Positions 48,001-51,000 of a DNA stretch of 61,195 nucleotides are shown here, piece after piece. The position numbers were made by a program. The stretch comes from a virus (taxonomy: Duplodnaviria > Heunggongvirae > Uroviricota > Caudoviricetes), in the IMG/VR virus record IMGVR_UViG_2523533514_000007; one strand, given 5' to 3'. Numbering within the stretch: the stretch's first letter is position 1; the number at the start of each line of letters is the position of its first letter.

Positions 48001-51000
48001 ATTATAACTGGAAAAGAACTCCTTATGATCGACCGATTTATACCACATCCACTGGTGCTACAGGAAATAAAATATATTCCTGTGAGCATTATTCCGGTGG
48101 TGCAACATGGGATATTCGAAAGCCGTATATAGATAAGGTCCTGGTTATTAATACATCAGTATATGATTAGTTGAAGCGAGTCTTTAATATTCATTTAAAA
48201 TGTCTAAAAAGATGTATTATTAAAAAGTTTAGCGTGTTATCTGAATACAGGATATCTTAAATGAAGAGTATAGCAACACTGGTTGTGTGTGCAATCTCCG
48301 GGATTGCCTGTGTAAATTTATCTGCACATGCAGCAGAAGGAGAGCATACAATTTCTCTGGGGTATGCGCACTTTCAGTTTCCGGGACTGAAGGATTTTGT
48401 AAAGGATGCGACTGCTCATAACAGGGAGACTTTCAGTCATTTCGTCAACAGAAACTACTTTTCTTCATTGGGCGAATATACAGATGGTCGGGTCAGTGGA
48501 TATGAAGGCAAGGATAAAAATCCACAGGGCATTAATATCAGGTATCGCTACGAGATAACGGATGATTTTGGCGTTATCACCTCTTTTACATGGACGCGTT
48601 CTCTCACTAACTCACAGACATTTATTGATGTGCAGTCAGCCGATCATACCAGGAAGATTAAGAATCCGGCAGCTTCTGCCAGAACGGATATCAGGGCGAA
48701 TTACTGGAGTCTGTTAGCGGGGCCTTCATGGCGGGTTAATCAGTACATGAGTTTATATGCGATGGCAGGGATGGGCGTTGCTAAAGTTAGCGCTGACCTG
48801 AAAATTAAGGACAATATTAACAGTAGTGGCGGATTTTCTGAAAGCAACAGCACGAAAAAAACCTCCCTTGCGTGGGCTGCAGGTGCACAGTTTAACCTGA
48901 ATGAGAGTGTTACACTGGATGTGGCTTACGAAGGTTCCGGCTCTGGCGACTGGCGCACGAGTGGCGTTACTGCTGGCATTGGCCTGAAATTCTGACCTGT
49001 ATCCGGTAACCGTTTACTACCCGCTGTGATGGCGGGTTTTTTATTGCCCGTACAGGGCAAAAACCGTAAATTATGCGTGGATGCCTTTCGGCTGATGGCT
49101 GGAGGGTGAACCTGAAGGCCTGATGTGGAAAGGCCCCGAGTCAACTTAACGTTAACCCGAGGCCCTAACACTTCGTACCTTAAGCAAGTAGAAGGTTAGC
49201 GCCTCTCTGTAAAAGGAGTCAAGCGCTATGTCGCAAAAATCGCTTATCACCGTCACAATTTGCATGACGGTTATCTTCACCATCTGGATGTTGCACGGTT
49301 CACTGTGTGAGTTCCGGCTGAATTTGTGGGGAGCGGAGTTTGCGGCGTTCTTACAGTGTAAGCAGTAGGAAAACCGCGACGGGGACGAGAGTCCCCGTCA
49401 ACTGGTTGCTGAGGTTCAGCCGATATGGCACCCGTTTCAGGTGAGAGAATGAACGATAAAATTCTCTGGTATATGCAGCGTGTTGTGAGAAATTCCCGCA
49501 ACCCTGAATTTATGAATGAAGTTAAAGACGCCTGCCTTAAAAAGCAGGCGTTTTGTTTTGAGGCACCTGATGGCTTTTTGGTGCTGCGTTCTGTGCTCAG
49601 TGCTGATGGTATCCCTTATGTTCTGGTGTTGCTGGGCGTGTGTACGGGGAGTAACAGCGTTGAGCGTTACCTGCCGGAGGTGAAGACATTAACCCATCTG
49701 GCTGGCGGACGCTGGGCTGAGTTCCATACGGCAAGGCGGGGATTTATCCGGCTGGGAAAACGACTGGGCTTTGAGCGAATGCCGGATGATGAGGATGGCT
49801 TCATGGTGTTCAGGATAGCGGTCTGACTGCTACAGTTTTCATCATTGTGTTTAAACCAACATTGTAATTCACATTCTGACCCTGCTCCGGCAGGGTTTTT
49901 TGTTATCCAGGGGGCCATTATGGGTGGAAGTAAAGGCGGTGGTGATACCAAAGTAAAACCAACAGCAGCGCAAATAGCACAGGAAGAAGTGGCCTGGAAA
50001 GGGTGGCAGGATTACAAAAATATCCTCCGCCCGGCTGAAGATAACTTCATGGAAAAGGTCGATGACCTTAACAGTGAGCAGCAGTACGACAATATCGCTG
50101 GCACAACAAATCTTGGTTATCAGAAACAGTTTGGTGAAGCGCGAAGGGAGCTGGCGGGTAATCTTGCTCAGTCCGGTGTTGACCCGTCCAGTGGTCGCTT
50201 TAACGCGGTAATGAATGCGAACCAGAGTGATCAGGTAACCGGGCAGATTGACACAACCACACGGGGGCAGGTATCGCAGGCAGATAAGTATGTTGCCGGG
50301 CTACAGGATGTTGCCGCTCTCGGTTCTGGTCAGAAGGCGGATGCGTTACAGAGTTTTAACTCTCTGGCAGACAGCAGTCTGGCAAAAGCTAAATCGGACG
50401 CACAGGCGGCGTTTACGAAACAGCAGGGGCGAGCCTCTCTTGTTGGCGCTGGTCTGGGTGCGGTAGGTGCATATGCGATGCATAAGGCTGGCGGTAGCGG
50501 AGGAAGTGGCGGTGCTAAAACACCTGGCACCGGCGCTAATGCCATTCAGCATCAGGCTCAGAACTGGAGACTGTGATTATGGAGTACGGTAAATACGAAA
50601 CTCTCGCAAGGGCTGGTTATTCAGGAGCAGCCCGCCCACAGGGTGACTGGCAGACGTCAGCAGCGCTGACACGCCAACAATACGACGACTGGCGAACCAG
50701 ATATTTGCCCCGCGTGGCAAGGCTGGCTGACCTTGGCGAGAACAACAGCCTGATGAATGCGCAGCTTGCCCGGGTGGGCGGCCTTGCCACTTCCAGTCTC
50801 CGTACAGCGCAGATGGCGCAGGATAACCAGATGGCGAGATACGGGGTAAACCGCCCGGATAATCCCGACAGTAATACGCTGGGGTTACGTAATGCCCTGG
50901 CAATTGCTGGCGCGAAAAATGGTATCCGTGAAGCCGAACAGGATCGCCAGATGAATATTCTGACGGGGGCTTCTGCACCGGCAAGACAGAAACTGAGTGT

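Follow-up and report, generated by a model that had tools for sequence, protein, structure and literature searches.

The full-length hok mRNA of the hok/sok (parB) system of plasmid R1 is folded and inert, closed by pairing between its 5' and 3' ends and by a long-range pairing of two boxes (ucb/dcb), with a hairpin past the stop codon and an antisense promoter that overlaps the hok ribosome-binding region. Post-segregational killing is a feature of this plasmid system. In Stx phages, hokW-sokW of Sp5 and 933W (Takada et al. 2021, PMC8621323) is the only experimental precedent, in Sp5 it brought growth arrest ~40 min earlier and its deletion halved the phage yield, which points to help in lysis and phage release. 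The peptide studied here has also been cloned: homologue 72_1589, of the 'high-abundance' 60%-identity Hok cluster 72 (Escalera-Maurer et al., bioRxiv 10.1101/2025.08.07.668861, v2, 2026), is identical to it and was tested for toxicity as pAZ3::72_1589 under an arabinose promoter. In that study 42 of 45 cloned homologues were toxic, the exceptions being only 19_179, 60_1482 and 69_1540, and 72_1589 being among the 42, toxicity of the identical peptide on overexpression has been shown in the literature. The DNA tested has a few synonymous differences from ours; the study dealt with coding sequences only, leaving out Sok, Mok and mRNA structure, and did not discuss a position after lom in Stx phages.

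The hok gene after lom and its relatives

The DNA analysed (61,195 nucleotides in all, hereafter the window) is an O104:H4-type Stx2a prophage integrated in wrbA. A hok cassette sits in it straight after the outer-membrane-protein gene lom/ail (48261-48995, Pfam Ail_Lom 113 bits) and is oriented like the late genes, all neighbours from the tail-fibre gene through the downstream phage genes lying on the plus strand, as hok does. The gene and its left-hand border comprise:

49019..49043, plus strand, intrinsic terminator of lom/ail, an 8-bp stem (49019-49037) and then a T-run, from a terminator scan and the sequence
49213..49218, plus strand, hok Shine-Dalgarno AAGGAG, read from the sequence, 9 bases ahead of the ATG and paired in the predicted full-length fold
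49228..49368, plus strand, hok coding sequence, MSQKSLITVTICMTVIFTIWMLHGSLCEFRLNLWGAEFAAFLQCKQ, 46 codons plus TAG, ATG start and TAG stop (49366-49368)

A preliminary description of this DNA had given the 46-codon ORF with its peptide and AAGGAG site, the Hok/Gef hallmarks with an N-terminal helix, and the position between an outer-membrane-protein gene and downstream phage genes, all of which held. It had also proposed a Pfam search, in which the peptide scored 33.2 bits against HOK_GEF (PF01848; E = 4e-8, residues 8-44 on profile positions 6-42 of 42), above the curated gathering cut-off of 22 bits; against PHROG 251 it scored 85.8 bits (E = 3e-24). Hydropathy peaks at residues 5-21 (mean Kyte-Doolittle >2), consistent with a single N-terminal transmembrane helix, and the family residues C12, T14, L26, C27, E28 and E37 are present, corresponding to logo positions C16, T18, L30, C31, E32 and E41. 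Both family cysteines (C27 and C44) are hard-coded in the peptide, so RNA editing is unnecessary. An intact ORF of 46-47 codons occurs in all 17 aligned homologous loci, and three homologues differ from the window gene by 3-7 synonymous codons and no non-synonymous ones; judged from these changes, the coding sequence is under purifying selection. The assignment of 49228-49368 as a genuine Hok/Gef-family type I toxin gene with a regulatory leader is thus supported.

As a discovery the gene matters little, it is a correct but ordinary find: the gene, its family, its mechanism and the exact peptide are already known, and current pipelines annotate it. The description "unlisted" is right for the ORF track used at the time and for older records (e.g. 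933W AF125520 and VT2-Sakai, where the ORF has no annotation), but wrong for RefSeq and several GenBank phage records. In RefSeq an ORF with identical coordinates is entered as "Hok/Gef family protein" (WP_000078907.1, also D300_gp72), names across GenBank and RefSeq include Hok/Gef, small toxic polypeptide and host toxic membrane protein, and at least 1000 contigs have the peptide on record.

Compared with R1 hok/sok, the window peptide belongs to the same family (30% identity), and the locus shares the established layout of the R1 fold, here as a prediction, with its predicted sok promoter placed as in R1. It differs in being carried by a prophage rather than a plasmid, in lacking a mok overlap or any start codon at the R1-type mok position, and in its shorter peptide (46 vs 52 residues), which ends in ...AAFLQCKQ with the second cysteine hard-coded. 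HokA is the nearest of the peptides compared (42.6% identity), sharing the W-M pair of the helix, the SLCE motif, the AAFL.C tail and two encoded cysteines, and some databases name the peptide 'protein HokA'. We rejected this identity: the HokA model (NCBIfam NF007290) is the nearest curated one, but its score of 38.4 bits is far under the equivalog cut-off of 89. A nucleotide search with the cassette, which matched only 1750 of 5426 genomes, gave no match at the chromosomal hokA locus.

Identity with the published hokW-sokW was likewise rejected. The published primers define a HokW of 51 residues, a member of the HokD cluster, which shares 37% identity with the window peptide over 35 residues, and hokW is a separate paralogous locus, situated on the other strand and close to the right end of the prophage (933W 58460-58615), with an annotated overlapping mokW. 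Probe YO-597, published for the hokW mRNA, finds no counterpart in the window; the only site there for the hokW forward primer is 61174-61194, within a frameshifted and deleted remnant at the right end that is all the window retains of hokW. No sokW leader turned up when the right end of phage P13374 was scanned with Rfam, which supports loss of the hokW-sokW locus. With the studied locus reduced to a dead remnant, no intact hok but the gene after lom is left in the O104:H4-type phage.

The cassette has sharp boundaries. The lom/ail terminator forms its left edge, likeness to other genomic contexts starting just to the right of it, and at the other end similarity between copies in differing contexts stops at 49433; the module as a whole, from the predicted hok promoter through the 3' fold-back element, spans 49044-49433. 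Of 5426 complete E. coli genomes, 1750 contain a cassette of ~375 bp with constant boundaries (49059-49433). It follows lom in Stx phages and ogr at the ends of P2-like prophages, separates J from the tail-fibre gene in a lambda-like prophage, and also occurs in a urease-gene island. The locus after lom in the window has a 99.8% identical counterpart in Sp5.

Predicted mRNA fold and leader

The sense RNA of the cassette is predicted to contain the following elements:

49044..49072, plus strand, predicted hok promoter, -35 TTGCCC (49044-49049), 17-nt spacer, -10 TAAATT (49067-49072)
49079..49433, plus strand, predicted hok mRNA core, from the start GGAUGCC... to the end of the 3' fold-back element
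49079..49095, plus strand, 5' element (tac-like), whose partner is the 3' end (49416-49433) in the full-length RNA, or 49125-49137 with the 3' end removed
49123..49199, plus strand, leader ORFs with conserved GAUGUGG, one from ATG 49123 (8 codons) and one from GTG 49125 (24 codons, TAG 49197-49199)
49378..49399, plus strand, post-stop hairpin, a 9-bp stem GACGGGGAC / GTCCCCGTC with loop GAGA
49402..49415, plus strand, downstream box, pairing with the Sok-target region 49179-49192 in the full-length RNA
49416..49433, plus strand, 3' fold-back element (fbi-like), complementary to the 5' end and overlapping the annotated start of the next ORF at 49425

We predict the hok promoter, and the sok promoter below, from homology and conservation only. 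The pattern TTGCCx-N17-TAnATT stands at the same position in homologues from unrelated genomic contexts; a consensus promoter scan of 48900-49600 returned no match on either strand. The predicted start at 49079 agrees with Rfam RF01794 (sok), a model that represents the hok-sense leader, which aligns end to end at 49079-49241 with 28.2 bits (E = 8.5e-4), below its gathering score of 59; a scan of the whole window at gathering thresholds gave no sok match. Homologues of the same cassette scored 42.8-51 and their alignments begin at the base equivalent to 49079, whilst the hokW leader, run as a control, scored 113.5 bits.

The mRNA core has a minimum free energy of -148.7 kcal/mol (z = -6.6). 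Across 17 homologues the fold is 90.9% paired, vs ~40% in slid controls, and holds 20 compensatory pairs vs 3-12, a comparison which favours the fold, as it was derived from the window sequence itself. Pairing of the 5' element with the 3' end is retained in 13 of 13 distinct homologue sequence pairs, with a duplex energy of -25.7 kcal/mol in the window and -27.5 to -35.8 in the 12 other distinct homologues, against -15 to -17 +/- 3 kcal/mol for shuffled duplexes (at most 1 in 300 shuffles matched the real pairing). The window itself carries A at position 49081, where 933W and all 16 other aligned loci have G; this change weakens both alternative 5' helices (duplex -25.7 vs -30.7 kcal/mol for the G allele). 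The alternative 5' helix with 49125-49137 was chosen by RNAalifold and has one compensatory pair.

The long-range helix between 49179-49192 and the downstream box comprises 13 pairs, four of them compensatory (e.g. CG in seven sequences and UA in seven), and resembles the ucb/dcb helix of R1. In the predicted fold the hok ribosome-binding site is hidden, 49215-49218 pairing with 49205-49208 and 49223-49227 with 49198-49202, and the AUG with the codons next to it is paired to the AAFL region (49334-49351), which is invariant at the nucleotide level. The hairpin past the stop codon shows four compensatory pairs of nine, with 99.3% of cells paired over the 17 homologues, and by the model of R1 hok mRNA it is likely the stall point of a 3'-to-5' trimming that would remove the fold-back element.

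These results shift the regulatory part of the preliminary description. A hairpin past the stop does exist, as it had said, though with 9 bp at 49378-49399 and not 8 bp at ~49385-49408, ~7 bases further left; the leader of ~190 bp shortens to 149 nt from the predicted start to the hok ATG; and an interval ending at 49420 cuts into the 3' regulatory element at 49416-49433. The sok and mok parts, which had been left unresolved, now separate, a sok element being placeable by homology and an overlapping mok being absent from the leader frames searched. The roles that it had put forward, prophage stabilisation, abortive infection or persistence, are conjectural.

No ATG, GTG or TTG ORF runs into hok in the window, and neither leader ORF extends to it. 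We therefore rejected a canonical mok here, the position of the 933W mokW ATG aligning to CCCUAAC, the ATG itself to AAC, with no frame into hok. An upstream ATG or GTG ORF of 60-79 codons does read into hok in 5 of 17 homologues, too few for us to claim a conserved leader peptide; the remaining 12 are conserved to the same degree with no such frame, an indication that this hok subfamily does not depend on an overlapping mok. At the other end of the RNA, the terminator scan found no terminator directly 3' of the fold-back element in the window, the first plus-strand terminator-like site beyond it lying at 49533-49550 within the next ORF.

Predicted Sok-like antisense RNA and proposed mechanism

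Two elements are predicted on the minus strand:

49122..49185, minus strand, predicted Sok-like antisense RNA of ~58-64 nt, with a 14-nt single-stranded 5' tail, a 16-bp hairpin (49130-49166) and then UUUCC
49193..49222, minus strand, predicted sok promoter, -35 TTGACT (49222 to 49217), 18-nt spacer, -10 TAACCT (49198 to 49193)

The predicted RNA folds with -31.3 kcal/mol (z = -6.4), and its position relative to the hok ATG is that of the annotated sokW in 933W, both antisense RNAs starting ~45 nt upstream of hok. Its -35 TTGACT overlaps the hok ribosome-binding site, and AGGTTAGCGCCTC of the promoter is invariant in 17 of 17 homologues. The consensus scan missed this promoter because its -10 fits at only three of six positions. 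In 933W the annotated sokW start is likewise preceded, at a distance of 7 nt, by TAACCT, and this is the hexamer that was changed in the promoter-less sokW mutant, with loss of antitoxin activity (primers YO-421/422; PMC8621323). The two loci are also alike in their mRNA ends, hokW having a 5' GGGUGC... start with a 3' ...GCACCC partner, although on the Rfam sok model they stand far apart, as the scores above show.

We regard it as very probable that ~49044-49433 is a complete hok/sok-type type I toxin-antitoxin cassette, carried as prophage cargo after lom. Family membership, conservation and RNA architecture are the observed basis of this explanation, its promoters, antisense RNA, 3' processing and role being predicted parts. 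On the proposed mechanism, a weak promoter would give a hok mRNA starting near 49079, and the full-length RNA would close, with its 5' end paired to 49416-49433, the Sok-target region to 49402-49415 and the ribosome-binding site and start codon buried, and in this state it would be open neither to translation nor to antisense RNA. Once 3' trimming had reached the hairpin at 49378-49399, the closing elements would be gone and the 5' end would re-pair with 49125-49137. A short, probably unstable Sok-like RNA (~49185 to 49122, from the TTGACT-18-TAACCT promoter) would then pair with the leader and block expression for as long as it is made. Once it is lost, the 46-residue peptide would be made, enter the inner membrane by its N-terminal helix and collapse the membrane potential. 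If translation is coupled at all, the source would have to be the 24-codon leader ORF, whose stop lies 14 nt before the ribosome-binding site.

Alternative readings and the two hok loci

The toxin gene could be intact in a locus that is otherwise inert, a toxic ORF and a folded mRNA being kept but no longer switched on, for want of an overlapping mok frame and of a well-defined 3' end. The window offers several points for this reading, namely that it has no ORF running into hok where 5 of 17 homologues keep one, that it carries the substitution at 49081 in the 5' element and that no terminator follows the 3' element; furthermore, in published work the chromosomal hokA, hokB and hokC loci were unable to bring about post-segregational killing, and several chromosomal hok loci with this inability have intact toxins. 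However, selection is clear in many contexts, purifying on the peptide and compensatory on the RNA structure, the cassette moves as one block whose boundaries stay the same, the hok ribosome-binding site is strong and well spaced, and the 12 homologues without an overlapping frame are no less conserved. We therefore consider an inert locus unlikely.

We give a similarly low probability to the reading that the cassette is mainly a phage lysis helper and not an addiction module. Antiterminated late transcription would cross the sense-oriented cassette, the read-through would collide with the sok promoter and yield hok RNAs whose 5' ends are foreign, and late Hok would speed lysis and release. 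Such an arrangement fits the plus-strand orientation shared by hok and all its neighbours, which the sok promoter faces, it has a precedent in hokW-sokW of Sp5, with its earlier arrest and halved yield on deletion (PMC8621323), and the destruction of hokW in this phage leaves the copy after lom as the sole intact hok. Yet for the locus after lom the proposal is wholly inferential; Sp5 carries the near-identical locus noted above, and deletion of hokW-sokW alone nevertheless gave a phenotype, which argues that the copy after lom does not fully compensate; and the same cassette resides at non-phage and prophage-end sites without late transcription.

Less probable still, and distinctly speculative, is a more specific form, in which the cassette after lom is a mok-less hok/sok variant used as a lysis-timing device, with Hok as an auxiliary, holin-independent permeabiliser of the membrane. 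Read-through from the late operon would here silence the convergent sok promoter, and the hok RNAs would escape the 5'-3' lock. If this were true, Hok would be the sole such factor in hokW-dead O104:H4-type Stx2a phages, and could affect the release of phage and hence of Shiga toxin.

A chance small ORF with a fortuitous motif match has practically no probability, for although 46-codon ORFs are common (67 ORFs of at least 20 codons overlap the 4.5-kb stretch around hok), it is refuted by the Pfam score above cut-off, the PHROG match, the synonymous-only change and the reported toxicity of the identical peptide.

Stx2a phages of the 933W/Sp5 type possess two different hok loci, of which only hokW-sokW has been studied. 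If the lysis and release role of hokW is extended to outbreak-type Stx2a phages, the locus after lom is the relevant one, hokW being dead there. In RefSeq the phage gene after lom is labelled 'MokW-like host killing', a name that holds at family level and is not an identity, and that invites a mix-up of the two loci.

A motif scan of one genome per species brought little further diversity, returning five loci only, in Salmonella, in E. albertii and on three contigs from implausible taxa, the last of which look like contamination.

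The hok gene downstream of lom

The locus following lom is best read as a working hok/sok-type module, which we consider quite probable for the toxin and the RNA architecture, with lower confidence attached to each inferred step. The hok/gef-family gene recognised there from the raw sequence in the preliminary description was borne out by profile searches: the sequence and the ORF listing give exactly the peptide proposed, which scored 33.2 bits against a cut-off of 22 in the Pfam Hok/Gef search and matched PHROG 251 at 85.8 bits, whilst the closest curated NCBIfam model, HokA, reached 38.4, far under its equivalog cut-off of 89. 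The ribosome-binding site is well spaced, as had been stated, and the outer membrane protein gene upstream is Ail/Lom (48261-48995; Pfam Ail_Lom, 113 bits); the phage genes downstream belong to PHROG 610 and 611, of unknown function.

Features of the hok cassette (those of the two promoters and the mRNA start are predictions)
49044-49072, +, hok promoter TTGCCC-17-TAAATT, conserved in unrelated contexts
near 49079, +, hok mRNA start, GGAUGCC, from alignment of the Rfam sok model
49122-49128, +, conserved GAUGUGG, with an ATG (8 codons) and a GTG (24 codons)
49198-49193, -, sok -10 TAACCT, 18 bases from TTGACT
49222-49217, -, sok -35 TTGACT, from homology and conservation
49213-49218, +, hok ribosome-binding site AAGGAG, nine bases 5' of the ATG
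49228-49368, +, hok ORF, encoding MSQKSLITVTICMTVIFTIWMLHGSLCEFRLNLWGAEFAAFLQCKQ
49378-49399, +, hairpin 3' of the hok stop, nine bp, four with compensatory changes

Earlier records already cover the gene, the family it belongs to and its mechanism, as well as the toxicity of this very peptide. The description of the gene as unlisted holds for the older 933W and VT2-Sakai records, where the ORF is unannotated, but not for RefSeq, which has 'Hok/Gef family protein' WP_000078907.1 at the same coordinates, nor for GenBank, where it is a 'small toxic polypeptide' or 'prophage host toxic membrane protein'; nor is it easily missed, as had been suggested, being annotated by current pipelines. At least 1000 contigs carry this exact peptide, which is homolog 72_1589 of a bioRxiv Hok catalogue; its 60%-identity cluster is rated there as high-abundance, and its clone is pAZ3::72_1589 (10.1101/2025.08.07.668861, v2 2026). 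In that study 42 of 45 tested homologs were toxic, the three non-toxic ones being named and 72_1589 not among them, and hok was enriched in prophages; Sok, Mok and mRNA structure were, by its own statement, left out of the analysis (10.1101/2025.08.07.668861).

Around the ORF, a stretch of 601 bases matches the Stx2a phages P13374 and phi191, as well as E. coli O104:H4 chromosomes, at 100% identity, and 933W and VT2-Sakai/Sp5 at 99.8%. When nucleotide similarity was searched for more sensitively, the matches at other E. coli loci consistently spanned 49059-49433 (1750 of 5426 complete genomes). Their settings vary: in Stx podophages the segment follows lom, in a P2-like prophage adjoining serS it comes after ogr at the prophage end, and in a lambda-like prophage it lies between J and the tail-fibre gene; other copies sit in a urease-gene island and near flk. 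This fixed span in differing contexts implies a mobile cassette of ~375 bp. Three contigs attributed to Xanthomonas pisi (857 bp), a Planococcaceae MAG and Vagococcus sp. (loci L018, L019 and L021) also carry the E. coli-type cassette; these are most likely contaminated assemblies.

An ORF of 46 or 47 codons was kept in all 17 aligned copies. Three copies with an identical peptide carry 3-7 synonymous codon differences and no protein-changing ones, and in more distant copies changes lie mostly in the hydrophobic N-terminal half, with M1, Q3, K4, C12, T14, W20, H23, C27, E28 and AAFLQC fixed. In the Stx-type prophage of E. coli 06_3044 (L004, 2690-2830) the post-lom Hok is much more diverged, with 21 of 46 codons changed, alongside leader and 3' elements that remain nearly identical, and the hydrophobic half of the peptide therefore evolves faster than the RNA elements.

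Leader, predicted antisense RNA and messenger fold

An overlapping mok frame and a sok promoter were to be sought in the leader, and a candidate was found, by homology, for the promoter only (TTGACT-18-TAACCT). The block AGGTTAGCGCCTC, which contains its -10 hexamer, is invariant in 17 of 17 copies. In 933W the annotated sokW start lies 7 bases downstream of the same TAACCT, with TTGCCT 17 bases upstream of the hexamer, and the promoter-less sokW mutant that lost antitoxin activity had exactly TAACCT altered (primers YO-421/422; Takada et al. 2021, PMC8621323). A strict consensus promoter scan of the locus returned zero on either strand. The Sok-like RNA is predicted to start at 49185-49186 and end at about 49122-49128, folding into a 14-nt free 5' tail and a 16-bp hairpin followed by UUUCC (-31.3 kcal/mol, z = -6.4).

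Frame analysis of the window revealed no ORF starting upstream at ATG, GTG or TTG that reads into hok, and CCCUAAC stands in the alignment where mokW has its start codon. One or other of the ATG and GTG frames of the conserved GAUGUGG runs into hok in five of the 17 homologs (60-79 codons), but neither reaches it in the window and the other 11 copies; here the GTG leader ORF stops at TAG 49197-49199, within the sok -10 and 14 bases before the hok ribosome-binding site. Ribosomes would thus either load straight onto the strong hok ribosome-binding site after the RNA has opened, or reach hok by coupling to the leader ORF. The missing overlapping mok is the sole departure from the textbook hok/sok layout, and is a point worth keeping.

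The Rfam 'sok' model aligns full-length from exactly 49079 (28.2 bits), under its gathering score of 59, as do the cassette homologs (42.8-51). Since it matches the hokW control on the hokW strand, from the 5' end to the ATG, at 113.5 bits, this model describes the hok-sense leader. The predicted fold of 49079-49440 (z = -6.6) is closed by a 5'-3' lock pairing 49079-49095 with 49416-49433, and all 13 distinct homolog sequence pairs retain this duplex, at -25.7 to -35.8 kcal/mol, where shuffles give -15 to -17 +/- 3 kcal/mol and at most 1 in 300 of them was as good. In-silico truncation of the 3' end makes the 5' end re-pair with 49125-49137, the helix that RNAalifold chooses on the alignment (one compensatory pair); a long-range helix of 49179-49192 with 49402-49415 has four. 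In the same fold the ribosome-binding site pairs with 49205-49208, and the start codon and first codons with 49334-49351, a pairing that accounts for the nucleotide-level invariance of the AAFL codons. The hairpin previously placed at ~49385-49408 with 8 bp is real, with one more pair and about seven bases further left. For the structure as a whole, which was itself derived from one of the aligned sequences, the window, 90.9% of the pairs form across the 17 sequences against ~40% in slid controls; compensatory changes occur at 20 pairs, where slid controls show 3-12 and shuffles 10.6 +/- 2.

Over 801 bases (48800-49600) the window differs from 933W at 49081 only, with A in place of a G that is also found in all 16 other aligned loci. 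In the predicted hok mRNA it falls at base 3, where A gives an A-C mismatch that weakens both alternative 5'-end helices and leaves the window with the weakest 5'-3' duplex of the set; this single-base difference in the 5' element also merits keeping.

In P2-type contexts a hairpin and T-run occur within ~40 bases after the 3' element. The post-lom context has no terminator there, the next plus-strand terminator-like site in the scan being 49533-49550. Flanked by T-runs on either side, a GC-rich hairpin of 10 bp (49528-49551) within the conserved phage ORF 49425-49826 (+) resembles a bidirectional terminator, and hok transcripts from the cassette promoter may end at it. Alignment of this ORF to the PHROG 610 profile begins at its residue 9, and its true start may therefore be ATG 49449, in which case it would not overlap the hok 3' element.

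Proposed mode of action and the separate hokW locus

As a working module, the hok mRNA would be self-locked and inert, would be activated on loss of the 3' lock and would be repressed by the short antisense RNA, with the Hok peptide depolarising the membrane. Two alternatives may hold in part. The toxin may be intact and the locus regulatory-dead, as reported for some chromosomal hok loci. The main use of the cassette may otherwise be to help lysis on induction: it lies in sense orientation within the late operon, facing its own antisense promoter, and by analogy hokW-sokW advanced growth arrest and its deletion halved phage yield (Takada et al. 2021, PMC8621323).

That system, hokW-sokW of Sp5, is the type I system of this phage group studied by experiment, and HokW, from the published primers, has 51 residues (MKQQKAML...YESEK; Takada et al. 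2021, PMC8621323) and is 35_712 of the HokD cluster in the Hok catalogue (10.1101/2025.08.07.668861). It maps to 933W 58460-58615, near the right end, where mokW and sokW are annotated. This different site, the opposite strand and 37% identity over 35 residues rule out that the post-lom gene is hokW; the name 'MokW-like host killing' that the post-lom ORF bears in the phage RefSeq record is thus misleading, and the distinction is worth keeping.

In the window, hokW survives as a remnant.
about 61075-61195, -, hokW remnant, frame broken, 74 bases deleted

Its ORF has its ATG (61195) at the window end, the resemblance to 933W sets in at the hokW ribosome-binding site, and by that comparison the entire leader, including sokW and mokW, is absent; Rfam found no sok leader in the corresponding end of P13374 either. 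In P13374 the remnant is annotated as a 38-residue hypothetical protein (ORF79). Searching the window by tblastn with nine Hok-family peptides gave matches at these two places only, and post-lom hok is therefore the only intact hok of the prophage; the death of hokW in this O104:H4-type phage is likewise worth keeping.

Other features of the window

At its left end (1-1910, -) the window carries a flavodoxin-like gene as its 3' part, the product ending ...AGLAVKLNG, fused to a short foreign N-terminus and directly followed by a 444-residue integrase-like ORF, an adjacency that marks the prophage-host junction. We take this gene to be wrbA, the integration site.

RNA genes (Rfam, above threshold) and a small protein
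5236-5325, 13532-13615 and 14451-14638, -, two sRNA-Xcc1 copies, and a C4 antisense RNA with adjacent isrK
24141-24389, +, three tRNA genes in a row
25798-26003, +, STnc100 (207.7 bits, above gathering score)
26005-26057, -, AsxR, anti-stx2 sRNA (88.1 bits, above gathering score), adjoining STnc100 on the opposite strand
51035-51286, +, 83-residue glycine- and alanine-rich protein, among the phage genes downstream of hok

The last of these carries the RefSeq label 'bacteriocin' in the related prophage L004 (4494-4745).
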